Origin: a virus
Lineage: Duplodnaviria > Caudoviricetes
IMG/VR virus record: IMGVR_UViG_3300028844_001594
Location: 1 to 34,546 of that record
Direction: 5' to 3' (one strand)
Length of the DNA: 34,546 nucleotides
Below the pieces are notes generated by a model. It did no database searches, was not told where the DNA came from, and saw only the letters and a program-made list of their open reading frames with translations. Below are positions 11,998 through 31,600 of the stretch, in pieces. The position numbers and the translations under genes were made by a program. Each line of letters starts with the position of its first letter. The stretch's first letter is position 1.

Positions 11998-11999
11998 AG

Positions 12000-12455
12000 G
12001 TGAAATTACAAAAAGTATCTGTAACTACAAGGGGGTTTTCTAAAATTTGCAGTAGAATGTGAGTGTGCAATATACACTCGCAGGTACCCCCTCGAAATTC
12101 ACCCCATGGGGGGTGATTCTCGTTGAAACTTGACCTATATAATAGTTCAGTCCAGTGAAGTAGCTAACTACTCGCACTCACCTAGCAAGTAGCACAACTA
12201 ATAGCCCAGCTATTAGACGCTTTACGCTTTGCGCTATTGCTGGCTCTGTGCTGTTCACTGGCCAGTCCTATCATGTAGGCGTGTGTAGTCTACTTTCGTA
12301 GACATACCACTTCACAAGTCTCTTCCTCACCTCACTCCCCCAGCTCTGCTACCGCAGACCCAAGTGGGGTTCATTCGAGGTACCTGCTTAATCCCGTACT
12401 TGCTATCAGCAACGGATTTTCCTTGCTATAACCATTAATGATATAGGAGTATATT
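12000..12455. other. non-coding strand-switch region (divergent promoters, possibly origin or genome terminus)
   Basis: Visibly GC-richer than its flanks, with no credible ORF. Contains the hairpin CACCCC-ATGG-GGGGTG near 12100 and separates divergent gene blocks. Confidence 0.55.
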
Positions 12456-12761
12456 ATGAGTTTAACTGGAACTATTACCAATACATTTGCTGGTTCTCGC
12501 AAGGGAAGTAAGTGGGTTTTTAAGCTTGATGAGAATGAGCAGAGAATTGCTACTAACTCTTTAAAGCTTACTGTTAGTGATGACCAAGAGTTACCAGCTG
12601 TTTTAACTGCAGAGAGAATTGCTAATGCTAGTAAGCAGTTAAATAACCTTAAATTCATCGCTGGTTCTGATTACCGTAAAGCCAGTGAAGAAACTCACTT
12701 CGAGGAGAGTCAGCAGATATCTGCAACTTATAAGCCTCTCCCGAAGAAGATTAGTTTCTAG
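12456..12761 (+). CDS. hypothetical protein, first gene of the early block
   Basis: 101 aa with an AGGAG SD, followed by a strong hairpin. Confidence 0.75.
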   Translation: MSLTGTITNTFAGSRKGSKWVFKLDENEQRIATNSLKLTVSDDQELPAVLTAERIANASKQLNNLKFIAGSDYRKASEETHFEESQQISATYKPLPKKISF

Positions 12762-13839: not shown

Positions 13840-14108
13840 ATTACGCTTTAATTGAATGTATTACCTTTCATCGCAAGATACAAAAAGGAGAATACAAAGG
13901 AGACAATACATATAAGAATAATCTTATCGGCATCTATAAGAGTTACGAAGAAGCTGAGTTTATCCTGTCTAAAGCTAAAAAGCATTTAGTCGCAAAGGAT
14001 GCAGTTAAGAGTATTGAGTATGATATTGTGAAGACAGATAAACAGGTAACAACAAGCAAGGTTGGTAATTATATCAATCGTAATAAACAGGAGGTTAGTA
14101 ATGGCTAA
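13836..14108 (+). CDS. hypothetical protein
   Basis: 90 aa, coupled to both neighbours. Contains 'LIGIYKSYEEAE', a pattern common in small phage proteins. Confidence 0.7.
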   Translation: MNYALIECITFHRKIQKGEYKGDNTYKNNLIGIYKSYEEAEFILSKAKKHLVAKDAVKSIEYDIVKTDKQVTTSKVGNYINRNKQEVSNG

Positions 14109-14334
14109 CAACAATCCAGTAGTAATAAGATACATGGCGTATCACACAGGTGGAGTACCAAAGACTGTAGAGGCATCTACCCCAGCAGAGATTGCTGAAA
14201 AAGAAGGATTTGGCATTGACGATAATCAAGTAGCGATTTTCGTTGGTGGTAAATCTGCAACTGCAAACACTCGATTAAAAGAGGGTCAGGTTGTATCTTT
14301 TCAGAAAGCTCGCCAAGAGTCTGGTAATAAATAA
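14101..14334 (+). CDS. ubiquitin-like (beta-grasp, ThiS/MoaD-like) protein, 77 aa
   Basis: True start is the ATG at 14101 (AGGAGG at 14089-14094). Pattern 'AIFVGGKSA..NTRLKEGQVVSF' matches the Ubl/ThiS 'i.vNG....d..L.eGd.v.f' pattern. Tail ...QESG-NK. Adjacent to E2/JAB/E1-like genes. Confidence 0.8.
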   Translation: MANNNPVVIRYMAYHTGGVPKTVEASTPAEIAEKEGFGIDDNQVAIFVGGKSATANTRLKEGQVVSFQKARQESGNK

Positions 14335-14343
14335 CCTGTTACA

Positions 14344-14377
14344 CCCCCCTAAGCAATTAGGGGGGTTTAATTTTTTT
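14344..14377 (+). terminator. intrinsic terminator between the Ubl and E2-like genes
   Basis: CCCCCCTAA-GCAA-TTAGGGGGG (9-bp stem, GNRA loop), followed by TTTAATTTTTTT. Confidence 0.75.
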
Positions 14378-14398: not shown

Positions 14399-16390
14399 AT
14401 GAAAATAACACACGAAAGATTAAATATTGATTCAACAATATTATGTCCGATATCTGTTACAAAAAAAAGTGCAACAACAATGCTTAACAGATTCTTTAAT
14501 TTAAATGAAGACGAATCTTTTTGGGAAACATTTCTAAATGATTATGAGTTGTTTTATGATTATGACCATAAAAGTTTCTTTTATATCGTAAGAAATGCAA
14601 GACTAAGGTTGCGTAAATATTTTTATATGCCACCTATATATGTAAAGCTTAATTTACTACAAAAAGAACAATTTGGAAGCTTAGAGCCTCAACATATTAG
14701 ATATCTTCAAAAGCTTGATTATTATAGCAATACAATAAATGAAGATGATTCAAAATCTTATGAATTTGATAATGAATTTTCATTTATGTCAGCTTATCAT
14801 CCTCATGTAGATAGCAATGCTTGCGCATGTTATGGTAGATGGGCTACTCAAATACAAGAAGTATATAACGAAGGTTTGGTTTATCCATTTATGGAAACTA
14901 TTAGAGCTTATTTAAATGACTATAATGGTAGAAGTACATTTTACAGTATAGACCCTTATGCTTTTGATGATAAACATACTTTTCAAATGCTAAATTTTGG
15001 TACCTATAAAGAAGATTGGCAATCTATAAACACTAATATGGAATTTATTTATGGCACTCAATGGTTAATGGATTTTTGTGAATATAAAAATCTTAACTAT
15101 GATATGTATTATAAAATATTTCTCTATTATCAAAATAATGATGTAAGAATGTTTGATAATGCTGACCAATTAAATAGCATATTGTTTAATGATGTATTAA
15201 GTCAATACTTAACTGATTACAGTGAATATATTCATTACAAATACGACATGACAGAAGAAGAATGGACTGTTTACAGAGAGTTTAAAGAATGGCTTAAGCC
15301 TTATACTCAAGAAGGAATAAACAAGTGGTTAACTGAATTTATTCTTAATCATTATGAATCTCCTATTAAAAATGGAGATATTAAGGTAATACAGTATGCA
15401 ATAGGAACTAGTATATACAAATTAAACAACATGGAGCATCTTTGGGATAAATTAAAACCCATATTAGAAAGATATTCTGCTATAAGTGTTATTAATAGCT
15501 TGAGCAATGTTTTACTTAATGATGATACTAGAGGATATGGAAGACGAAGAGAAGCCAATCTGTTTTTATTATTATCTACCAACATTAAACCCAGTCAAAT
15601 CTATGAATCATATATTAAATGGGCTGAATATAAGATTGGTAATGATAATACATCGTTTTTGATGGAGAATTACATCAATATATCTAATACATCTAGAATG
15701 CAAAGTCAAGGTTCTTTTGTAAATACCGATATGGAATTAAAGACTATAAATTATGATATTGATTGGGAAGGTATACAGATAGAAGGTTTTAGGCACACAT
15801 GGATTAATAACTCTAAAGAGCATTGGAAACAGATATTAGGATTAAAATTAGTTAGAGAGCTAAATCGTTATTGTAATAATATAGTTGAAGACAATGATAT
15901 AACCATTAGCAATAGTGATAAAAAATATCTTTTAGAAATAATGCTTAATAGAGAAGAAGTGGTTGAAACAACAAGTGTTAAAAAACCTAAAACAGAAGAT
16001 ATAATTAGACTTGGACTTGTATCAATGCTTAAATACCATAATCTAGGCTTAACAGCTGATGTTTACCATGAGTTAGTTGATTTCTTATCAAAACAAAACA
16101 CTGAATATAGTACAAATGAGTTAGTAACATTAATGTCAGGAATTGTAAATAATGACCAAAATAATCTAGAACAAAAAAGAGAAAATATGATAGATATGAT
16201 ATACATAGCAATACCAGATTTTCCAAAAAAGCTAGATGATTTTCACGATTATACAATGAAATCTTGGGCAATAATACTAAAAAATGCATTTGCACACTAT
16301 AAAACAAATATAACAAATAAAATAAAGGAGTTAAACAATGTACTTAACAATACCTCTAGAGATATATCTCAAACTGAACTATTTTCTTAA
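14399..16390 (+). CDS. large protein with an N-terminal E2/UBC-like conjugating domain
   Basis: H134-P-H-V-D-S-N-A-C-A-C144-Y-G has the same spacing as the E2 motif HPNxxxxGxICL (Cys 10 residues after the His). The ~500 aa C-terminal region is unassigned. AAGGAG SD. Confidence 0.65.
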   Translation: MKITHERLNIDSTILCPISVTKKSATTMLNRFFNLNEDESFWETFLNDYELFYDYDHKSFFYIVRNARLRLRKYFYMPPIYVKLNLLQKEQFGSLEPQHIRYLQKLDYYSNTINEDDSKSYEFDNEFSFMSAYHPHVDSNACACYGRWATQIQEVYNEGLVYPFMETIRAYLNDYNGRSTFYSIDPYAFDDKHTFQMLNFGTYKEDWQSINTNMEFIYGTQWLMDFCEYKNLNYDMYYKIFLYYQNNDVRMFDNADQLNSILFNDVLSQYLTDYSEYIHYKYDMTEEEWTVYREFKEWLKPYTQEGINKWLTEFILNHYESPIKNGDIKVIQYAIGTSIYKLNNMEHLWDKLKPILERYSAISVINSLSNVLLNDDTRGYGRRREANLFLLLSTNIKPSQIYESYIKWAEYKIGNDNTSFLMENYINISNTSRMQSQGSFVNTDMELKTINYDIDWEGIQIEGFRHTWINNSKEHWKQILGLKLVRELNRYCNNIVEDNDITISNSDKKYLLEIMLNREEVVETTSVKKPKTEDIIRLGLVSMLKYHNLGLTADVYHELVDFLSKQNTEYSTNELVTLMSGIVNNDQNNLEQKRENMIDMIYIAIPDFPKKLDDFHDYTMKSWAIILKNAFAHYKTNITNKIKELNNVLNNTSRDISQTELFS

Positions 16391-17240
16391 ACAATTTCCA
16401 ACAACAGAATGGTCAGGGCCAGCATGGTATAAGCCTCATTATAGAAAAGGAGAGAAATTTCCTAAAGGCTTTACCCTTGTTCACTTTCACCCTGTTGATT
16501 TAGGACATGGTACAGCAACAACAATAGAAGCTGAAGATACTGCAAAAATACTTCAGAAAACTTGGAAAGATTATCCAGAAACAGAAAAATGTATGATGGG
16601 AATTATACATTCTCACCATAATATGGGTGCGTTCTTTAGTGGAACGGATAAAAACTGTTTAAAAGATAATGCTCCAATACAAAACTTTTATTGTTCAACA
16701 GTTGTAGCAAGTAAAAAAGAAAAGTTCGCATTTGCTATTAGCTATCAAGACCAATACGGTAAAACGCATTTAATAGAATCTAAATCAGAAGATATTAACA
16801 TGCAAATGCCTAATAAAAGCAAAGAACAAGATAAATGGGCTAGAATAGCTAAGAAAATAAAAGATGATAAAAAAGCAACTACTGTTACCAACTGGTATGA
16901 CAAAGGAGGCAGTCTTAATCAAGGCAATCTCTTTCCCATACAAAATAGACCCAGTCAATTCGGTAGTTACTATACTAATAATTTTAGTATTAATGCTTAT
17001 GATGAATACGATACTGTTATAACTGGTCAAGAAAAAATCATAGATAAACACAGAAAAGATTCTATGACAGCTGATGACCCTGATTCTGCTTATATATCAA
17101 GTTTATATAAAAGTATGAATGCAGGAGAAATAGACCAATTATTAGTAGAAGAAGAACTTGAGCTAATGAATCTAAATCCAGCAATAGTAATAGATGAAAT
17201 AGGTAAGGAGGACAAAGATGAATCAAAAGCATCTGCGTAA
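16338..17240 (+). CDS. JAB/MPN+ (JAMM) metalloprotease, deubiquitinase-like
   Basis: Catalytic Glu in 'TEWSG' and a complete H-x-H-x7-S-x2-D motif, 'HSHHNMGAFFSGTD'. Acidic low-complexity C-terminal tail. Confidence 0.88.
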   Translation: MYLTIPLEIYLKLNYFLKQFPTTEWSGPAWYKPHYRKGEKFPKGFTLVHFHPVDLGHGTATTIEAEDTAKILQKTWKDYPETEKCMMGIIHSHHNMGAFFSGTDKNCLKDNAPIQNFYCSTVVASKKEKFAFAISYQDQYGKTHLIESKSEDINMQMPNKSKEQDKWARIAKKIKDDKKATTVTNWYDKGGSLNQGNLFPIQNRPSQFGSYYTNNFSINAYDEYDTVITGQEKIIDKHRKDSMTADDPDSAYISSLYKSMNAGEIDQLLVEEELELMNLNPAIVIDEIGKEDKDESKASA

Positions 17241-17961
17241 TAAAGACCTTATACCACAAGAAAAGCTCAACGATGTAACAGTCGTTGGGCTAGGTGGTAT
17301 AGGTAGTAGTGTTATTATGTTATTAGCAACTATGGGCTTTAAGTTTATAAGAGGCTATGATAATGATAACATGGAAGAGCATAATTTTGGCACTACATTA
17401 TATCCAGAAATATGGTATAATGAGGTTGATAATTCTAAGGCTTCAATGGCTGAAAAAATTATCAAAAGCTACGGAAGTAGTAATGTTGAAATAGACATGC
17501 AACAAACTTTGTTTACAGGAGAAGGTCAAGTACTTTCTCCTAAGACAATAGTTTGTACAGATAGTATGAGCAGTAGAAAGTTAGTATATAACAAGTGGCT
17601 TGAAAGAGAAGATAGAGAAGTGTTTATAGACCTTAGGATGGATGCACTTTCTATGAGCTGTGTAACAGCAACGCAAGGACTTGATAAATATCAAGATTAC
17701 TGGTTTCCTAATGGAGAGAGTGGGCAAGAAGCTCCCTGTACTATGAAACATACAATATTCTGTGCAAACCTAATTAGTGGTATTGGTGTGAATCAACTGT
17801 TTAATTACTTGACAGGGAGACCTTTTTATGGCTATATTTGGCAAGGTCTTTCGCCTTTAGTAATAAAGACAGAAGACTTCAATAGTGGAGAAGTAAATAA
17901 CACAAACAATATAACTGAGGAGAATGCGTATGCAAATACAAACTCGTACAGTTACAACTAA
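17218..17961 (+). CDS. E1-like ThiF/MoeB-family adenylyltransferase
   Basis: 'VTVVGLGGIGS' nucleotide-binding loop, 'YDNDNMEEHN', 'CTDSMSSR', 'IDLRM', and candidate catalytic Cys174 in 'EAPCT'. Confidence 0.9.
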   Translation: MNQKHLRNKDLIPQEKLNDVTVVGLGGIGSSVIMLLATMGFKFIRGYDNDNMEEHNFGTTLYPEIWYNEVDNSKASMAEKIIKSYGSSNVEIDMQQTLFTGEGQVLSPKTIVCTDSMSSRKLVYNKWLEREDREVFIDLRMDALSMSCVTATQGLDKYQDYWFPNGESGQEAPCTMKHTIFCANLISGIGVNQLFNYLTGRPFYGYIWQGLSPLVIKTEDFNSGEVNNTNNITEENAYANTNSYSYN

Positions 17962-18769
17962 TTGGAACGAACAACCTGCGGGGCTGACTTGGTATTTTAT
18001 AGGTCAGCCCAAAACAGGTAAAACCACAGCGGCCGCTAACTGGTCTGCAAAAGGTGCTAAAGGTGTCTTAATGATAGATACTGACCTTGGTGCAGACTTT
18101 GTTGACGGTGCTAATGTTGTAACAGTTACATCACTTAACCCACCTTTTACAGGAGAAGGGGATGATAGAAAAATGATACCCCCTCTTGAACGAGGATTTT
18201 ACCATAGAGTTGGCCCTAAAAGAGGCGAACCAATGGAGGTTTATTCTTTATTCGAGGTATATACTTGGATAAAAGATAATTGGAAATCTCTAGGCTATGA
18301 AAGCTTGGTAATAGACACAATAGATACTATTAACGAATGGATACAGGAAGCTGTATGCGAAGAGTTAGGTATAAGTGCAATGGGTCAAGGAGAATGGGGA
18401 GCTGATTGGGGTAAAGCAAGGAAGAAAAATGTGGACATAGTTAAGAGATTACAAACTCTAATGAAAGCACATGGCTCTAACTTAATACTCACTTCCCATA
18501 GTAAACAATCCCAAATGAATGATGGCAAAGTGCAATTAAGTCCTGAATTACCAAGAGGTCTTGGATATGCGCTATGTGCTAAAGCCGATGTAATAGGATA
18601 CTCAACCGTAGTTAAAGATGAATTGATACCAAAAGTATCTTTTCAAGCTTATGACGAAAGAACAGTTGGCTCTAGACTTAAGCCATTAAATGGGCTTGTT
18701 CTGCCTTTTACATATACTGATGTAAATAAGGCAATAACCGAATACAAAGAAGATGAAGGAGAAAGCTAA
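17930..18769 (+). CDS. Sak4-like/AAA_24 P-loop ATPase (recombination/annealing protein)
   Basis: Walker A 'GQPKTGKTT', 'IDTDLG', Walker B 'LVIDTID', 'ILTSH', 'ADVIGY'. Start moved to the ATG at 17930, 7 nt after GAGGAG. Confidence 0.82.
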   Translation: MQIQTRTVTTNWNEQPAGLTWYFIGQPKTGKTTAAANWSAKGAKGVLMIDTDLGADFVDGANVVTVTSLNPPFTGEGDDRKMIPPLERGFYHRVGPKRGEPMEVYSLFEVYTWIKDNWKSLGYESLVIDTIDTINEWIQEAVCEELGISAMGQGEWGADWGKARKKNVDIVKRLQTLMKAHGSNLILTSHSKQSQMNDGKVQLSPELPRGLGYALCAKADVIGYSTVVKDELIPKVSFQAYDERTVGSRLKPLNGLVLPFTYTDVNKAITEYKEDEGES

Positions 18770-19380
18770 TGGCGTTATTACAATCAAGTAGTAATACAAA
18801 AATGAATAGTGATTTTACTGGTTATTTTGAAGCTGGTATAGAAAGAGTCGAAGATAAGAGCGGTCAATATGACTGGGCTGATTGTTGGCTTGATGTACAC
18901 TTTAAAATAAAAAATAGTAAATACCCACAAGTTCATTCTATCAAAGGTTCTTATGAAAAGAATCCTGACGGGACAGTAAGTATTAATAGAGTAGTTAGAC
19001 AGTTTAACTACTTAAAAGATGCTATCGGTTTCGAAGGTGGAATCAATACTGAAGGAGACTGGGAAATGGCTAATGGTGAAAAAATAGACAGTATAGAGTC
19101 TACTTTAAACAGCTATATTTCAGAAATGAACGGTAGTGATAATCCTTTGCTAGAACCGCCTCATAACTACCTAATATATGTTTATAGAGAAGCACCAAAA
19201 AAACAAGGTGATAAAACATATAAAAGGGTGTTGGGTAAAATAGTCGATAATGATAATGCAGGTAGAAGTGACTTAGAAAGTTATGTAACCTACATGAAAC
19301 AAAAAGGCTATTTAAAGGAAGCGTCTGAAAACGACATCCCTTCCACACCAACTCAACCTCAAAGCGATATGCCATTTTAA
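18769..19380 (+). CDS. single-stranded DNA-binding protein (probable)
   Basis: Follows the Sak4-like gene. Beta-rich body and a flexible tail ending 'SDMPF', similar to SSB C-termini. Confidence 0.65.
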   Translation: MALLQSSSNTKMNSDFTGYFEAGIERVEDKSGQYDWADCWLDVHFKIKNSKYPQVHSIKGSYEKNPDGTVSINRVVRQFNYLKDAIGFEGGINTEGDWEMANGEKIDSIESTLNSYISEMNGSDNPLLEPPHNYLIYVYREAPKKQGDKTYKRVLGKIVDNDNAGRSDLESYVTYMKQKGYLKEASENDIPSTPTQPQSDMPF

Positions 19381-21179
19381 TGGAGCTTTATGTTGAAGTA
19401 GCTATAGGGAGCCCCCACCAAAGGGGGCTTCTTATGACTTTAGGTAAATATGAAAAAAATATGTCTGAGTTTTTAGAGCGGGGACAATACATACCCATAT
19501 ACAGGTCTCATTATCTATATGATAAAGATGCTTATCTATTTGTACAAGATAACAAATCACTAAAAGACTACACGGGTAAAAGGTATGTTGATAATATACT
19601 TATTGATATTGACCGCAAAGATGATAGTGACGATAGAGTATTAGAAAAAGCTAAGCTTGCTGTAAATGAACTTAATTCAATGGGACTAAAAGATGGTAAT
19701 TATAGTATCTTTTATAGTGGTACAGGTTACCATATATTAGTTTCTGCTGATTGTTTTGACTTTACACCAAGTGAACAGTTACCTTATATAGTAAAACAAA
19801 CAATGACACAGCTATTTACTACAGTTAATATAGACCCTGCTGTGTATATGAGAACTTCTATATATAGAGAACAAGCTACTAAAAATGCTAAATCAAACTT
19901 GTTTAAAACAAAGCTATTAACACAAGGTTTTATGCAATTAACTTTTGATAAAATAAAAAAGCTTGCATCAAAACCTTCAAATATAGACTGGAAAGAAACT
20001 CTTTGGGGTGATGGCAGTTTAGAAGACAAAGTAAAGACTAATGTAGAGACTGTTCGTTCTTTTAAAGCTGTACAAGAACCTACAAAAGTTGCACCTTGTG
20101 TTCAACAAATGTTTGCTGAAGGCCCTAATGAAGGCAATAGAAATAATGTTATATTGCGTATGGCTTCGCATTTTAGACGAAATGGTATACCCTCTGATGC
20201 TACAAAAGCATCCTTACTACACTGGAACAATAATCAACTCCGTGAAGAGATTGTATTAGAAAAAGTAGAAAGTGTATACAATAACGGGTATCAATACGGT
20301 TGTCAAGATGTTGAAATGAAAGCTAGATGTAAAACGCATTGTATACATTATAAAAAGAAAGACTATGACATAGAAGTTAAAGACTTTCAACAACTACAAA
20401 AAAGACTAGAAGAAAGAATGTCAACTGACTTTAGTGGGAAAACAATAAATTTATCAAAGATATTTGGGTTACCAGATGTTGATTGTACAATTTATCCCGG
20501 TGAGTTAGTTACTATATTTGGGCCTACTGGCGCAGGTAAAACTACTGTTGCTCAAAACATTATCTTAGGGTATAATTCTGCTCAAGACAGAATAGACCAA
20601 GATTCACAACTAAATACTTTGTATTTAAGTTTAGAATTGAGTGATTGGTATATGCATAAAAGGCATATTCAAATAGTCGCTGATGTAGATAAACAACAAG
20701 TCGAAGGAGATGTTTCTAAAATAGCAGAAGACCACAAAGACTTACTAGACCATGTTGTTATACAAACTGTTCAACCAACCTTAGATAGTATTCAAACAAA
20801 AATAAGAGAACTAGACCCTCAGGTTGTTGTGATAGATTATATAGACTTAATAGACCCGGGCCCTACAAAGCGTGGAGAGTACGAAGCTATTAGATATATT
20901 AGTCATTCACTTAGTAATATGGCAGTTAATAACGACATTATTATTATACAGCTATCACAAGTAGCTAGAGAATATAGTAAAAATGATGTTCTTGATTTAT
21001 ATGCTGGTAAGGGTAGTGGTGCTATAGAAAATGCATCTCGTAAGGTATTAGGTATTAATGGGCAAGCAAAAGACCCTGTTAAATATCTATCCTTATTTAA
21101 AAACAGTGATGGTGAACTTTTTAGTGATATTCCACTAAGATGGAGACCTTCATTTAGACTAAGGAGAGATTATGAATGA
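19380..21179 (+). CDS. AEP primase(-polymerase) fused to a DnaB-like SF4 helicase
   Basis: AEP motifs 'LIDID', 'YSGTGYH', 'DPAVY'; PriCT-like 'EGNRNN'; helicase motifs 'GPTGAGKT', 'YLSLE', 'VVIDYIDLI', 'QLSQ', 'GSGAIEN'. Confidence 0.88.
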   Translation: MELYVEVAIGSPHQRGLLMTLGKYEKNMSEFLERGQYIPIYRSHYLYDKDAYLFVQDNKSLKDYTGKRYVDNILIDIDRKDDSDDRVLEKAKLAVNELNSMGLKDGNYSIFYSGTGYHILVSADCFDFTPSEQLPYIVKQTMTQLFTTVNIDPAVYMRTSIYREQATKNAKSNLFKTKLLTQGFMQLTFDKIKKLASKPSNIDWKETLWGDGSLEDKVKTNVETVRSFKAVQEPTKVAPCVQQMFAEGPNEGNRNNVILRMASHFRRNGIPSDATKASLLHWNNNQLREEIVLEKVESVYNNGYQYGCQDVEMKARCKTHCIHYKKKDYDIEVKDFQQLQKRLEERMSTDFSGKTINLSKIFGLPDVDCTIYPGELVTIFGPTGAGKTTVAQNIILGYNSAQDRIDQDSQLNTLYLSLELSDWYMHKRHIQIVADVDKQQVEGDVSKIAEDHKDLLDHVVIQTVQPTLDSIQTKIRELDPQVVVIDYIDLIDPGPTKRGEYEAIRYISHSLSNMAVNNDIIIIQLSQVAREYSKNDVLDLYAGKGSGAIENASRKVLGINGQAKDPVKYLSLFKNSDGELFSDIPLRWRPSFRLRRDYE

Positions 21180-24173: not shown

Positions 24174-25607
24174 TTATTCATTGTCTTTTAAATAACTATA
24201 ACCAAGTAAACCTGAACTTGCTAAGCCTGCAATACCTGCCCCTGCTTGCACTCTATTCCTCATAAAGTAATTGTTGTACTGTGCAAAACCTTTTTGGTTT
24301 TTAGCATTTTTTACTATATTATCATGTTCTTTATATAACTTATTAATATTTACCCTATCTGTTTTAGCTAAGGGACTATAATTAGATAATATTTTTACTT
24401 GCTCTGCTTTTGTTGGGTCTAATTGTTTAGGTGTAGGCATAGCAAATCCACTATCTTTAATAGCTTTTCTTTGTGCTCTTCTAGCCATAATTTCTGCGTA
24501 TGCATCTGTATTATCAGAACCCTGCAAAGACTCTTTTAGTAAATCATCTGCCTCATCGTATAGCTCTTGTATGTTTTTTTTAGCCTTAGGTATACTTATT
24601 TCTCTAGCTTTAGTTATATTAAGTGTACTTCTACCTTTAGTTTCTGCTGATAAACCAAATAAATCAGGCCTATCACTTGCTAACATTTTTATCTTAGTTG
24701 GGTCTTTTTTAGGATTAAATTTTATTAAACCTTTATATCCACCCCAATCATAATTAGGTTTACCCTTAGGAGACATAGATATATAAATATCATCACCAAC
24801 CTGCGATGTATTAAAATCATTAAATATAGCTTTTACAGCTTTATAATTTCTATCCTTAGGTGTTTTTATATTATCCAATCTTTGTAATCCATTATATACC
24901 CTTCTGTCAAATTGTATCATTCTTAATACATCACTATGGGGTACATTTTTATATACCGCAAATTGATTATATAAAGTAGGGGTTTTTTGAAACCCTATAC
25001 CAAGCATTTTTAAGTCTTGTCCACTAAAATCATCAAGCACATTATACTTGTTTTTCATATCAACTAAAACGCCTTTGGCTGTACCACCTTCTCTGTTTAT
25101 AAATCTATTTATACCTTTATATGGTGATTTACCTGTGTACATATATGTATTTCTATAATCATTAGTAAGTTTAGCAAACACTTTTTTATCGGCATTTTTT
25201 ATTAAGCCTCTAGCTTTGGTATAACTTATTTCATCTCTTTTAAACATATCTATAGCTTCTTTTTTAACTATTTTAGATTGTTGATATATATCACTGCTAA
25301 CTTTAGATACACCAGTTTTTCTATATGCAAAAGATTGTGATGGACTTAATGATTGTTGAGCCATTCTTGCAGTGCCTTTAATCCCTTCTTTGCTTGCTAA
25401 AAATGCTTTACCTACTCCTCCTACTCCTTTACCATAAAAACCCTGAAGAAAGTTATTCATGCTTGATACAAACAAATTTCTAGCTCTACCTCCACCAAAT
25501 AATATTGCTCTACTAGCTAATCTTGCACTTGGTACAGCAATACTTGCTACTGTTGCAAGTTTTAATAAGTTATCTGCAAATTCATTATTATCTTTTTGTT
25601 CAGCCAT
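24174..25607 (-). CDS. basic virion/ejection-type protein, hypothetical
   Basis: 477 aa, TAATG-coupled to the giant gene. Ala/Gly-rich hydrophobic segments at both ends. Confidence 0.55.
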   Translation of the reverse strand: MAEQKDNNEFADNLLKLATVASIAVPSARLASRAILFGGGRARNLFVSSMNNFLQGFYGKGVGGVGKAFLASKEGIKGTARMAQQSLSPSQSFAYRKTGVSKVSSDIYQQSKIVKKEAIDMFKRDEISYTKARGLIKNADKKVFAKLTNDYRNTYMYTGKSPYKGINRFINREGGTAKGVLVDMKNKYNVLDDFSGQDLKMLGIGFQKTPTLYNQFAVYKNVPHSDVLRMIQFDRRVYNGLQRLDNIKTPKDRNYKAVKAIFNDFNTSQVGDDIYISMSPKGKPNYDWGGYKGLIKFNPKKDPTKIKMLASDRPDLFGLSAETKGRSTLNITKAREISIPKAKKNIQELYDEADDLLKESLQGSDNTDAYAEIMARRAQRKAIKDSGFAMPTPKQLDPTKAEQVKILSNYSPLAKTDRVNINKLYKEHDNIVKNAKNQKGFAQYNNYFMRNRVQAGAGIAGLASSGLLGYSYLKDNE

Positions 25608-28600
25608 TACATTATTCCAGAAAATAAATCAGATGCTTTAGCTCCGGGAGGAGACCAAGATTCTTCACCCTTTTCTTCCTTTTCCTTTTCCTTTACACTT
25701 AGTCTCTTTGCACTTACTACTGGTATACCCGTTAACTTGTCTATACCATAATAAGGATTATCTGTTAAACCACCCGGGCCAACAAGGTCTCTTGCTAATC
25801 TTCCAAATGGAAACATTGTCCAAGCGTAATAATTGCCCATCTTTTCCCAATCATCATTAATAAAACCATTAAGTATAGGCCCTGATAACCTAAATGATGG
25901 AGGCGTAATAAGTTGTAATGGAGCAAGAGCAGTTGGGTAAGAACCAAAAAAAGCTCTGTCTCTTTCTTTTTCATTTCCAAATACCCAATCAGATAAATCT
26001 TGGAACCAAGCATATGGTTGTGGCATTTGTGAGCCAAATAATGAATACATAAACATTGAACCAAGTGCTAAAGATACCATATCGGCCATCATAAGCCTTT
26101 TAAAGCGCTCATATTGCTGACTATTTGGGTCTACACCATAGATACTAGCTTCTTTTAAAATCTTATTTCTAAATCTTACACTATTCCAAGCCCATAATTG
26201 AAACCTAGTCATCACCTTACCCATAGCAGTACCTGCAAATAAAGGCCTAAATGGAACGCTATATAAAAATTGAGTAGCCTTAACCCCTCTTTTACCAAGT
26301 TCTATTAAGAAAGGATGGTCTCTTTCAAGTATTCTACCGCCAAGTTTATTTTTTGCTTGTATATAATGAGCTATAAATGAATCTCTACGCAATGCTCTTT
26401 CTGGCATTGACATAAATTTACCAGCTACATCCATCATTCCTTGACTTATTCCGTGCTTTTTACCTAAGTCTCTAAATTTAACATCAGGTAAATCAGGGTC
26501 TTTCTTAACAGCTTGTTTAAAGTCTTTTAAGAAGGAATTAAATTTAGCTCCAGTTAACCTTGGGTTGGCACCTATTTCACGAATTATAAATTCTTCAATG
26601 ATGCCTAGCTCTCTAACCCAAGTATTAACATCGTTCCAAGTTTTAAATTTGCTATCAATATTCCTTCTTAAAAAATCTAAATCTTTAGCTTTTCTAAAAT
26701 TATTCCACCCTGCATTAACAACAGTCATTTGTGTACCGCCTAAATAGTTACCAACACTTGACTTAGGGTGAGCAAGTAATGTAGCTAATGAATACTTAGC
26801 TTCTGCATTACCTATATTTATTACAGTTTGTGCATCTATGCGACCTAAGTCTTTTAACTCAGGTGGTAAATCTTTACCTACTAAATTTAACTTTTTAGCT
26901 ATTTTATCAAACCTTTGTGCTACCATATTATCAGCAAAAGCACTATAAAGTGTGCCTTTAATGTTCATATTCTTGTTTTCATATAATTGAGTAGGTATAA
27001 TACTAGGGAATCCTAAAGCTTGTTGACTGTAAAGTTTAAAAAAGTTCATCCAATTACTTTTTAATTCTGCAGGCATATCTCTATGTTTATCAGCAAACTT
27101 GACTATAGTTTCTCTAGCCATAAGCTGACCCACTTGTCTATATAACATTCTGTTAATACTATTACTATATTCAAGATAAGCTTCTGGGCTTAAATTCCAA
27201 CCATCAATATGATTTTCTCTTGAGAACTGACTGCCTATTTTACCTGTGTTTTCAAACCAAGTTATTTGCTCTTTTAAATCTTTTTTACCTTGATATTTAA
27301 CAATAGCATCTGTTACAGTTTCCCATGCTTCATTTTGTACATCCATTTCTACAAAATCACCACTAAGTTGTTTAGTTTGCATATAAACCTTAGCAATCTT
27401 TTCTTTCTTTTCAGCTTCGGGTAGGTTGCTTTCCCAAATCATTTTAATCTTTTTTCTTAAATCACCTGTAACAATTCCTCTTTCAAACATTTTAGATACA
27501 TGCGGGAAATAACCAAACAGTGCTTTCTTGTCTTTTACATATCCTTCAAAACCTAATTTACCCGTGCTTTGTAATGGCATTCTTGTTAATGCAGAGCTAG
27601 CTCCATTTCTTAAGGTTTTTCTTATTGGATTTTTATCTCCAGCTTGTCTTTCTGCGTTTCTTAATTGTTGTATCTGAAAGCTTAATATAATTTTACGCAT
27701 ACCATCTATGCCAATTTTATCCTCAGGCATAGCTTTACCATGTTTCATATGGTCTAAGAAAAAATCAATTACCTTTTTTCTATTAAAAAGGGGTATTTCT
27801 GTTTTATATCTATTCCCACTTGCATCAACACCTTCTATGTATTCTACATTTCCTCTACCATCTTTATTAGCAAAACTATTTACAAAGTCTACATCTCCTG
27901 TTAGCTTAACCCAGTTTTCTTGGTTTTTAACTGCTACTAAATCTTGTATTTCTCTAACAACTTCAAATGCAGGTTTTCTTTCACCGCCTACCATAGTTAG
28001 TAATTTTTCTCTGTTTTTATCCCATTCTACTTTTTCAGTCCATTCTTTTAGCCTGTTTTCATATGTTTGTGCGTAACTTTCTGATATAGCGTCTCCATCT
28101 TTAGCTCTTTGTCTTAATCTTGGTATTTCAAACTTTGCTTCTGCATCAGCCATAGCATACCACCATAAGTTTTCACCTAATTCAGTATTCATGTACTTTT
28201 CAGTAGCTTCACCCCATTTACGCTCTTCTCTTTGGCCTTGCATAGTACCAAGTTCTTGAGATAAATATATATGATTTTGTATTTCACCCATCCATCCTTG
28301 AGCTGATTTAGATTTACCCGTAACCCAATTACCGTATTTATCTTTAAATATAGTCTCTGAATCATTCCACTCTATTTCATGTCTCATTATGTCTCTTTCA
28401 ATAGCCTCAGGAAACATATGATAAAATCTTTTAGCTAATTTAGGAAATTTACCCTCTACTTTTGCAAAAGTTCTTTGAAACCAAGTACCATCTCTATGGC
28501 TTTTAAATATGTTATTTACAATTTTCCAATCAGTAGCGTTCATTACATTGATATCTTTATTAATCATATCTCTTACAATGTAATTTAAATTTTCTGCAGT

Positions 28601-31600
28601 TTTAGGGCCATAATAGTCTATATGGTCTCTTAATTCATTATACACCTTTACCATTGATTTATTTAATTTACCCTCTTTAAGGCCTTTAAATGGGGCGTAT
28701 TCGTCTAAATATTTATTAGTCTTTGAACTATAGTCTCTAGAATTAATAGCTAAACCCTGTGTTCTTTTACCGTCTTTATCAAACAATGGTTGTTTTTGAA
28801 ATTCTGCTTCAAAATTATCTACTATTTTATCAGCTGACTCTATAGGTAGTTTATCAGGTTTCATTTTATTAAATGCTTCATCCATGATATCAAGCTGTCT
28901 GCGTATTATATAATCACTCACTTCTTTAGATGCAAACCCAACCTTACTAAATTTAGTATTGTTTAACATCTTTTTTCTAGCTTCTAGATATCTTAATGCT
29001 TGGTTCTTTGACTTACCCGCAGGCATTTTATTTATACCTGTTTCTAGCTTTTTAACAAAAGCAGGGTCTCCTTTTTGCCAACTACTAATAAGTAAAGCAT
29101 CGTAAAGGTCTTGCCAAGCCTGTGGTTTTCCTTGTTTATCCATAGCAATCATACTATCTACCTGTATTTGGTCAAGCTCTGCAGATGTTTTTTCACCAGC
29201 GCTAGTTCTTTCTATTTCTAAAAGCCTGTTTTTTTCTGCATCAGATAAGTCCATTCTTTCAAGCTCGTCTACGGCTTGTCTTTCCTTGTCTAGTCTGCTT
29301 TTTATATTAGCTTTTTCTTCAGCAAGTCTAGCTATATTACTAAATTCTTCTTTACTTATTGCGTCTTTACGCCACACTTCATTTATAAGTTTTATACTAC
29401 TAGCGTCACCCATATCTTCAGAAACATATTCAGATGCTTGACGAACTAGATTGTCAATAACACTAGCTTTATCACTTCTGCTTTTTAGCATCTCAGGTAG
29501 CATTTTATTAATATCAGATTGAGTGAGGTTTTTATTTAAATCAAGTCTTTTATTGTAGTCTTTTTGCAATGATAAAAAATCATTTACATAATCCCTTCTT
29601 TTGTCTCTAGTAGTAGGAAAAAATAAATCATTATGAGGATTACTATTATACAAACTTCTAATTTTTGACAAGAATAAGTCAGGATTACTCGTTATTAGTC
29701 TATTGTACTCAACATCATTATCTATCATTCTAGACCTAGCTTCATAATCCCATAGTTTATTACCTCTTACTATTTGTATAGGTCTTTGCATACCAACTAC
29801 TAAACTTTGTCTTCCAAGTACATCTTTAATCTCTGTATACTCAGGCGTTTTTAAAGTTTCGTTTAAATCTCTATACCAAGTATCTAGTTTACCCTGCTCT
29901 ACTCTATGTAAAAATGAATCAGTCCAATCAATAGGTGTAACTAGCTTAGCAACTTTACCATAAAAAGTAATATCTGTTCTTTTGTTTTTACCAACGGGTG
30001 GAAGATTCTCACTCTGAACCATTCTATCTTTAAACTCAGGGTATGTATACATTCTATGAGTTCTTAAATTTCTACCAAACCCTGCGCTATTTATACCACT
30101 CATGATACTTAATATCATTTTACGCTTTTGATTTGCTTGCACATCTTCATTTTTAAATTTCCAATAACCTTTGCCTTCTTTTTTAGGATAAAACATAGTT
30201 ACATCAAATAAACTTTCATAAACCCTGTCAAAGAAAACTTCCATATTCTTTAATCCTGCTTCATCCATAGGGTCAGATGCTAAAGCAACACTAGCTCTAG
30301 CTCTTTTTCTAAATTCTGCTAAATCTTTTTGACTTGTTTTAGGAGTTATAATTCCAAAATTACCTCTGCCTAAATCTATTTTAAGCTCTTTTAAATTGTT
30401 AGCTTCTAAATGACTGCGGATATGATTATAAGTAGCAAGTACTGTTGCTCTATTTACAACAGCAGGGCCCAACATAGCTCTTCCCTCATAAGCGCCTTTA
30501 CTAGCCTGCATTCTCATAAGAGGACTATATCTTAAAGTAGGGCTTTTAATCCTTTTTAATGTTTCTGGATTACTCTCAGCAAACATTTTTCTCATATCAT
30601 CAGGTTTATTAAAACTTACTACAGGGTTTCCATCTTTATCTTTAGTGTAAAATTCTTCTTTTTGTTTCCCGTAAGCATCTCTCCAGTCTTTTCTAAAACC
30701 ACTTTTTTCTCCACCAAAAAATATAGTGGCCTTATCACCGTCTAAATCAGCCCCTCCCAAAGCTTCCATTGTTCTTGGATGTAGTATACTACCATAGCCT
30801 TTTCTACTTGTAAAACCAGCAAATGCGAGCTTATGAGCACCACTTAAAGAATCCATAGGAACTCGTACACCTACTCCTTCAAATATATTCTCATACATTT
30901 CTTTAGTGTTTTTATCCATTGTAGACTTTCTATCTACATACTCATTCCATAATTCGCCAAGTTTTCTTTGTTGACCATTATCCATATAGATTCTAGTCTC
31001 TCTATGTCCTTCATCTAAGAAAAATATGCTATCATTCTTTTCAAGTAATGTTAAATCACCATACTTGTTTTTAAGAGTTCTTACATAGGGGTCATACCCA
31101 GTCATCCTAGTAGCTACGCTATTTTTAATTCTTGGTTTAACTATTTGCGCCATAATATAGTTACGCATAGCTGATTGTCTATATTGATTTCCAACCTTGT
31201 GTAATAAAGGAATAAGCGAATTAGGCTTTAATTGAGTCATTCTTTCAAATGTACTAGTCCATTCCATAGCATCAAGTTTCATTAAATTAGCATCTCGACT
31301 ACTTATTTCACCTTCTTCCATTAATTCAGATGTTACTTCTTCATTGATTTTTAAAATCTTTTTATAAGCCTTTATAGCAAATGATTCATTTTTAGTATTA
31401 GACATTAAGCTTAATAGTTTTTGTACACCAACATCTTCTATATTAGCTATTATCCTATCTTCTAATTTTTCATTCATTGGTTCAGCAAGTAATTTATCTG
31501 CTTCTTTATTCCAAAGCTCTTCACCTTTAAAAGAGCGCTCAGACACTTCATTAAAAATATTATCAATTACTTTTTGTTCTATTTTTTTAAATCCAAATGG

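Follow-up and report, generated by a model that had tools for sequence, protein, structure and literature searches.

The locus studied here raises the question of why a phage should carry an E2-like enzyme with an extension of about 470 residues, and what that extension does. On the minus strand of the window, by which we mean the whole 34,546-nucleotide stretch analysed (a 34.5-kb virus record from an uncultured phage), lie genes for terminase, portal, capsid and endolysin; the plus strand has a block that includes Sak4-like and primase-helicase genes, and in this block sits a cassette encoding, in this order, a ubiquitin-like protein (Ubl) of 77 residues, the E2 protein, a JAB metallopeptidase and a ThiF-family E1. 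The order Ubl-E2-JAB-E1 recurs in the related loci examined. A preliminary description of the E2 reading frame (14399 to 16390, plus strand; 663 residues, with a Shine-Dalgarno-like AGGAG upstream) had proposed that its extension is a substrate-selecting, E3-like module. From our comparison of sequences, we propose that the best-supported job of the extension would reside in a short terminal motif, by which the E2 would be brought to the sliding clamp of the host.

The cassette and its neighbourhood

The 77-residue protein (14101 to 14334, plus strand) reads as a Ubl from ThiS-like signals that are weak but consistent: Pfam ThiS matches below the cut-off were obtained for the proteins of two relatives (L059, E 6e-4, and L086, E 0.03), and its Atlas features are ThiS/MoaD-like (score 0.92; ThiS on 19% of members). 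In seven relatives, the Ubl is 73-82% identical to that of the window. A conserved Ser-Gly75 is followed by a tail of 0-19 residues that varies among the relatives, giving about 40 distinct C-termini, and this tail is predicted to be cut by the JAB after Gly75. Between the Ubl and E2 genes lies a terminator-like hairpin with a T run (14343 to 14376, plus strand; 10-bp stem), from a hairpin scan that found 3 in the window vs 2.3 expected in shuffles; such an element would yield the tag in excess over the enzymes. Hairpin-like stretches were also seen by eye 5' of the E2 gene in several relatives. A promoter scan was at chance (30 vs 28).

The JAB gene (16338 to 17240, plus strand; Prok-JAB, E 3e-6) shares 53 nt with the E2 gene, which it overlaps, and its product has the EWSG and HSH...S..D signatures. 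The E1 (17218 to 17961, plus strand; ThiF, E 2e-11) is a single ThiF domain of 247 residues with Cys174 in the sequence APCTMKH and no CxxC zinc motif. The cassette adjoins, and runs co-oriented with, replication genes (17924 to 21179, plus strand) that keep their order in relatives: a Sak4-like annealase, a 203-residue protein and a primase-DnaB helicase. Family searches with the 203-residue protein gave no match; we infer that this protein, with its acidic ...DMPF tail, is SSB-like. A search with the Pfam models of PolA, PolB, Pol III alpha and the beta-clamp came up empty in 5/5 related contigs, in which controls were detected; these contigs are linear, with an estimated completeness of 83-98%, and may be incomplete. 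The phage appears to be without a replicative polymerase of its own, and its primase could itself polymerise. Since no clamp gene was found in these five contigs, the clamp in question would be that of the host.

Elsewhere in the window, a gap between divergent gene blocks (11998 to 12455) contains a perfect hairpin (12099 to 12116), with raised GC content and a flip in GC skew, and is a candidate origin or control region. The first plus-strand gene (12456 to 12761) encodes 101 residues without a family match and is kept in all close relatives examined. On the minus strand, a protein of 2869 residues (25607 to 34216) has no Pfam or PHROG match; judged by its size and place, it might be a virion protein that is ejected, for example a virion RNA polymerase.

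An E2 domain with a variable extension

The E2-like motif that had been placed at residues 134-146 was confirmed in the reading frame. It reads HPHVDSNACACYG (14798 to 14836, plus strand), that is H134-P-H136...C144-x-G146, and His134, His136, Cys144 and Gly146 are all present in 36/36 full-length relatives from the loci; Cys144 is predicted to be the thioester residue. The second cysteine reported two residues before it, Cys142, does exist in the window but is conserved in only 3/36 of these relatives, all three near the window's sequence, and we rejected it on this ground as a second catalytic or metal-binding residue. The core closes with another conserved motif, NDYNGRSTF (residues 173-181; 14915 to 14941, plus strand), which in distant relatives reads N/S-x-W/Y-N-x-x-S.

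Searches of Pfam, PHROGs, NCBIfam and PADLOC with the E2 gave no match. Homologues were collected as 9 proteins by a first search and then 28 by profile, and an AlphaFold2 model was built from 23 sequences (pLDDT 78, pTM 0.70). When this model was compared by VIA with 48,161 chains, the top two rows and most of the top 30 were E2/UBC proteins; UbcH10 was the best match (5a31_Q; Z 5.8, rmsd 4.6, 131 residues aligned) and BubB had Z 4.0, values that are middling. With the full model as query, Foldseek found no PDB or viral model at E<=0.001, the best viral row being the unnamed A0A516LW79 (E 5.5e-3). In profile-profile comparisons of the E2 cores of seven subfamily groups, six matched the window's group at 95-99% probability. 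An E2/UBC fold is thus supported, from models and profiles, for the N-terminus of the protein (residues ~1-189; 14399 to 14965, plus strand). Many of the VIA alignments stop at residues 334-337, which suggests, judging only from alignment ranges, that a helix of the extension may replace the usual last E2 helix.

Beyond the core, the extension consists of a variable helical body (residues 190-611; 14966 to 16231, plus strand) and, after a P-x-F-P sequence, a long terminal helix (residues 612-651; 16232 to 16351, plus strand) that leads to the end motif. It is mostly helical in the model, with one small beta-hairpin region at 450-467, and reaches pLDDT 74 when residues 190-663 are modelled alone. 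It matched no known enzyme or fold in any of our searches. Foldseek with residues 190-663 alone gave nothing at E<=0.001; VIA returned generic helical bundles (best Z 4.8) and barely covered residues 190-400; Atlas gave no feature match and, when queried with a poor model, TM <=0.36; and a PDB sequence search had a best E of 0.033. By these searches, neither a new nor a known fold is shown. The Tyr/Asn/Ile-rich composition described earlier is present (7.0%, 10.5% and 9.1%), although Tyr is more frequent in the E2 core (10.1%).

By identity, the extension is the fastest-changing part of the locus, a possibility that the preliminary description had raised. In seven relatives, its identity to the window is 19-26% and that of the E2 core 35-48%, vs 61-88% for the Ubl, JAB core, E1, Sak4-like, SSB-like and primase-helicase proteins of the same seven; in an eighth, close relative, the E2 core and extension are at 78-81% vs 96-100% for the neighbouring genes. 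Between the window and this close relative, the extension has a dN of 0.11-0.12 (0-0.017 in the neighbouring genes) and a raised dS of 0.36-0.49; most neighbours have a dS of 0.03-0.15, and the JAB tail reaches 0.37. Positive selection on the extension is not shown, its dN/dS of 0.24-0.34 in this one pairwise comparison being below 1; the dN and dS values agree with an exchange of alleles combined with relaxed or episodic selection. Proteins of the different subfamilies are 415-712 residues long and their E2 cores align well, but their extensions can be aligned in the last 40-60 residues only, or nowhere. The long last helix and the tail motif are the only part of the extension that is alignable across diverged phages.

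As had been noted for the cassette, no separate RING/E3 gene was found: none of the 22 window proteins matched a RING or E3 family, and the five reading frames of the cassette region have no CxxC. The extension has two cysteines in 474 residues, no CxxC and no catalytic-type residue kept across subfamilies; C227 is kept in 14/18 of the window's group only and is not conserved family-wide. With no RING signature and no Cys kept across subfamilies, a catalytic "E3-like" role is not supported. What stands of the E3-like proposal is a fast-evolving module without a known fold or enzyme match, in a cassette in which no E3 gene was found. Whether the variable helical body picks the target is, in our judgement, an even question.

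Clamp-binding-like motifs in the E2 and the JAB

The preliminary description recognised no motif in the extension, which was wrong in one respect: QTELF at residues 658-662 (16370 to 16384, plus strand), inside the overlap with the JAB gene, is conserved and resembles a beta-clamp-binding motif. Just before the stop codon, the E2 proteins read QTELF, QGELF, QAELF, QTDLF or QVQLF, or else QVHLSF, QVPLSF or QVPLFF, corresponding to Q-x-x-L-F and Q-x-x-L-x-F. In the literature, the clamp-binding consensus is given as QL[S/D]LF, often C-terminal (PMC9690074, PMC3716654), and a six-residue form as Q-phi-x-L-x-L, with QVELEF of Pol III as an example (bioRxiv 10.64898/2026.05.27.728225). Judged by sequence, both the five- and the six-residue clamp-binder forms occur in the E2 family. 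The pLDDT is <50 at residues 657-663, which places the motif in a flexible, low-confidence tail. The window's own QTELF, and the QGNLF of its JAB described below, deviate at position 2, where the residue is not aliphatic. MuC of phage Mu binds DnaN via QHDLF/QPDLF (PMC12867686), from which it follows that position 2 need not be aliphatic; MuC is, like the proposed E2, a phage protein with Q-x-D/E-L-F on host DnaN, but it is a transcription factor, and no homology is claimed.

The reading frame upstream of the JAB overlaps the JAB gene with the same frame offset at 46/46 distinct junctions, and the K-x-x-Y-F/L-L of the JAB supplies much of the overlapping E2 motif and nearly dictates its Leu. 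As a null, the JAB codons were resampled synonymously by locus codon usage with the E2 frame kept open. The strict motif, defined as Q..L[FL] or Q..L.F at the E2 end, was found at 42/46 junctions and in 24/27 clusters vs 2.1 expected, although the clusters share ancestry, so that this and the other motif contrasts overstate independence and their P values are too strong. The Gln depends on a base that is C in 25/27 clusters (about 4.3 expected), and the JAB residue at this base varies (L, S, T, N, H, D). For the held-out set, 80 loci of 370 were kept, with 57 junctions and 17 new clusters. Its E2 ends had the strict form in 6/17 clusters (0.41 expected) and the broad form in 10/17 (1.13 expected); five of the 11/17 that missed the strict form read QLS[LIA], with no Phe at position 5 or 6. 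These counts argue that the tail motif is kept far beyond what the JAB overlap forces, more weakly in the held-out loci. A further pattern, fitted to the data only afterwards, was set aside. The strict motif is absent from the E2 in 3/27 clusters (L036, L037, L059). At these loci (L036:4452-5864, L059:5880-7127, L037:981-2309), the JAB linker motif is missing as well, and the L036 JAB ends in QGDLYD.

Near the end of proteins, the strict pattern was found in one other family, the Sak4-like proteins (31/273 reading frames). At many loci, Sak4-like proteins are encoded 3' of the E1, and most of them have Q-K-V/T-L-x-F near the C-terminus; this fits the six-residue pattern and is probably a structural strand. 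The Gln of that pattern is missing in the window's own Sak4-like protein.

The second clamp-binding-like motif, QGNLF at JAB residues 195-199 (16920 to 16934, plus strand), lies in a poorly conserved linker. This linker is unalignable, follows the catalytic domain and is overlapped by no cassette gene; in relatives it carries QMDMF, QSNLF, QTRLF, QTSLL or QVNMF. The strict form occurs in 8/27 clusters (0.3 by shuffling) and the broad form in 16/27 (1.4), in a stretch of linker that was picked after seeing this first set; the held-out linkers have the broad form in 12/17 clusters (0.9 expected) and the strict form in 0/17 (0.2 expected). That two enzymes of one cascade bear the same short motif, in sequence that is otherwise free, is our main evidence for a shared docking site. 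Among crAss-like relatives (79 junctions, 10 clusters), the JABs have the strict motif in 4/10 clusters (0.3 expected). The E2 candidates have it at their end in 0/10, so the tail motif is not needed by every such cassette.

A proposed clamp-docking scheme, its alternatives and related systems

We propose the following scheme for the cassette, which is predicted to be a working protein-conjugation system. By analogy with Bil and Bub, the JAB would trim the Ubl to Gly75. The E1 would adenylate the Ubl and carry it on Cys174, from where it would be transferred to Cys144 of the E2, a residue that is invariant. The QxxLF tail of the E2, in which both the motif and selection on it are seen, would then enter the clamp pocket, and the helical body may, with an even chance, position or select the acceptor instead of an E3. 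Using its own motif, the JAB would reach the same clamp site and take the tag off. The cassette would likely serve a phage apparently without a replicative polymerase, by redirecting or regulating the replisome of its host. We hold docking on DnaN through the E2 and JAB motifs to be probable; that the E2 extension docks there and the cassette tags the clamp, or a clamp-bound protein, has in our view somewhat better than an even chance. A more speculative form of this scheme, which we advance tentatively and consider less likely than not, is that many phages, crAss-like relatives included, covalently tag DnaN or the polymerases on it with a ubiquitin-like protein of their own, with E2 and deconjugase both in the clamp pocket, as a bacterial-viral counterpart of PCNA ubiquitination that switches the replisome to phage DNA. 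PCNA ubiquitination by Rad6-Rad18 brings a conjugation enzyme to the sliding clamp in eukaryotes and needs a RING E3. No RING E3 was found in the window, and the comparison is an analogy only, with no claim of homology.

The alternative that survives best is that the helical body is the true target selector for a variable host protein, for example a defence factor, the clamp motif serving to concentrate the enzymes on replicating DNA or being secondary. We consider this unlikely, although much of the divergence speaks for it: identities of 19-26% against 61-88% in the neighbours, a dN of about 0.12 vs 0-0.017 with dS raised as after allele exchange, and bodies that are unalignable between subfamilies. 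BilB has also been proposed to choose its targets by a divergent E2 loop (PMC10557695). However, such a selector leaves the same motif in the JAB unexplained, and a body of 470 residues would also diverge fast under relaxed constraint, its dN/dS being <1.

It is less probable still that the partner which both Q..LF motifs bind is not DnaN but a phage protein or a cassette member, and that the tag goes onto phage replication proteins. The co-oriented Sak4-like, SSB-like and primase-helicase genes would suit such a role, and five-residue clamp motifs are described as degenerate (PMC9690074); against this, the five- and six-residue forms are both present, as in known DnaN binders, and no phage clamp was found in the five contigs. 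We regard as very improbable, and disfavour, the reading in which the overlapping start of the JAB gene produces the E2 tail motif incidentally and the extension is a drifting scaffold. The fixed frame (46/46), the near-dictated Leu and the absence of the motif from 3/27 clusters and from the crAss-like E2 candidates would fit it, but synonymous resampling yields 2.1 of 27 clusters against 24 observed, the JAB linker motif has no overlap, and five held-out clusters in which the JAB has E/K before the Lys regain the Gln two codons on, as QLS[LI]. Just as improbable is a ThiS/ThiF-type sulfur relay, or a small-molecule or nucleic-acid modifier with the extension as an enzyme of an unrecognised type: the Ubl is ThiS/MoaD-like, the E1 is a minimal ThiF and databases label the crAss001 E1 "thiamine biosynthesis protein", but an E2 fold with an invariant Cys, together with a JAB, is a hallmark of conjugation operons (PMC1779556), and the extensions of different subfamilies have no residues of catalytic type in common.

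Returning to clamp-directed conjugation, the window cassette would work like Bil (a Cys relay, no E3) with the gene set of operon type 6d; it fails the tested defining features of operon 6d, Bil and Bub. For operon 6d, which we take to be the PRTRC cassette, no NCBIfam PRTRC model reached its cut-off in the window (PRTRC_A 14.9 vs 101.8 bits, PRTRC_ThiF 18.5 vs 144.75, none for the E2 or Ubl). As described by Iyer, Burroughs and Aravind (2006, PMC1779556), 6d resembles the window in that a mobile element carries Ubl, JAB, E1 and E2 as separate genes, and its function is predicted; but its E2 misses the upstream His and has a downstream one, and its helical protein is encoded separately, whereas in the window the E2 has H-P-H before the Cys, as classical E2s do, the helical body is fused to it, and the host element is a phage. 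Across the window's E2 family, the upstream HPH is invariant and no conserved His was found after the Cys. BilABCD types I and II (PMC10557695) share with the window a Ubl tail trimmed by the JAB, as predicted here, a Cys-based E1 and E2, the lack of an E3, and a divergent E2 part proposed for target choice, as proposed for the window's extension. Bil belongs to bacterial defence, however, its BilD being an IAD-AAD-CYS E1, and BilB is without a 470-residue extension; the window's E1 is a ThiF of 247 residues carried on a phage, and PADLOC gave no match for its Ubl, E2 or JAB. Bub (6E) operons have a minimal E1 and a diverged UBC fold, as the window does, but they use Tyr/Ser oxyesters, gene fusions and BubE (PMC11601596), in contrast to the window, whose four genes are separate and whose E1 and E2 each have a conserved Cys. 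No window protein matched DUF6527, and Cys144 of the E2 is invariant, in contrast to the Ser of the Bub E2 site.

Among cultured phages, related blocks of four genes in the same order were found in crAss001 (gp79-gp76; L090:2193-6603), Flavobacterium phage Fpv3 (L091:2565-6576) and two further loci (L092, L093), and related four-gene cassettes also occur in DAC15 and Fpv phages. The crAss-like/Flavobacterium phage block encodes a Ubl-like protein with ..SG and a long tail, an H-S-H...C protein, a JAB and a ThiF protein, with the same type of overlap; it is annotated as hypothetical, metalloprotease and thiamine genes, and not as a conjugation system. Its H-S-H...C protein (the crAss001 gp78 type) is only remotely alignable with the window E2 (probability 0.7-13%), with a shorter extension and no tail motif. 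The JAB of crAss001, gp77, has QGELPF, and that of cr106_1 has QTNLPF. The first gene of cr106_1 is interrupted by an HNH gene right after the Ser-Gly. Scans of GTDB genomes gave no relative of the E1 and, for the JAB, 9 loci, most of which are crAss-like contigs that had been placed in unrelated MAGs; those of L094-L100 lie in MAGs labelled Bacilli, Clostridium, Spirochaetia, Nitrososphaerota and Tissierellaceae, and are likely mis-binned phage DNA. Just 5' of one crAss-like cassette (L095:4288-6237), the translation contains a repeated unit, CRISPR array-like.

Among the papers listed by our searches of the open literature, we found none on a phage-borne Ubl-E2-JAB-E1 cassette or on clamp motifs in one. 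The main text of PMC7886860 contains none of "ubiquitin", "ThiF", "JAB" and "clamp", and that of PMC7824862 none of "JAB", "Ubl" and "ThiF". Scans of IMG/VR confirmed 142 matching stretches for the E1 and 370 for the JAB. To our knowledge, the prokaryotic ubiquitin-like systems that have been characterised (Bil, CBASS Cap2, Bub) are bacterial and tied to defence; here the tagging kit is on the phage side and is common. The shared motif offers a concrete, cheaply testable target site for a system without a known substrate, and shows how a cascade without an E3 could gain specificity. Should the clamp itself prove to be the tagged protein, eukaryotes would not be alone in using clamp modification as a replication switch.
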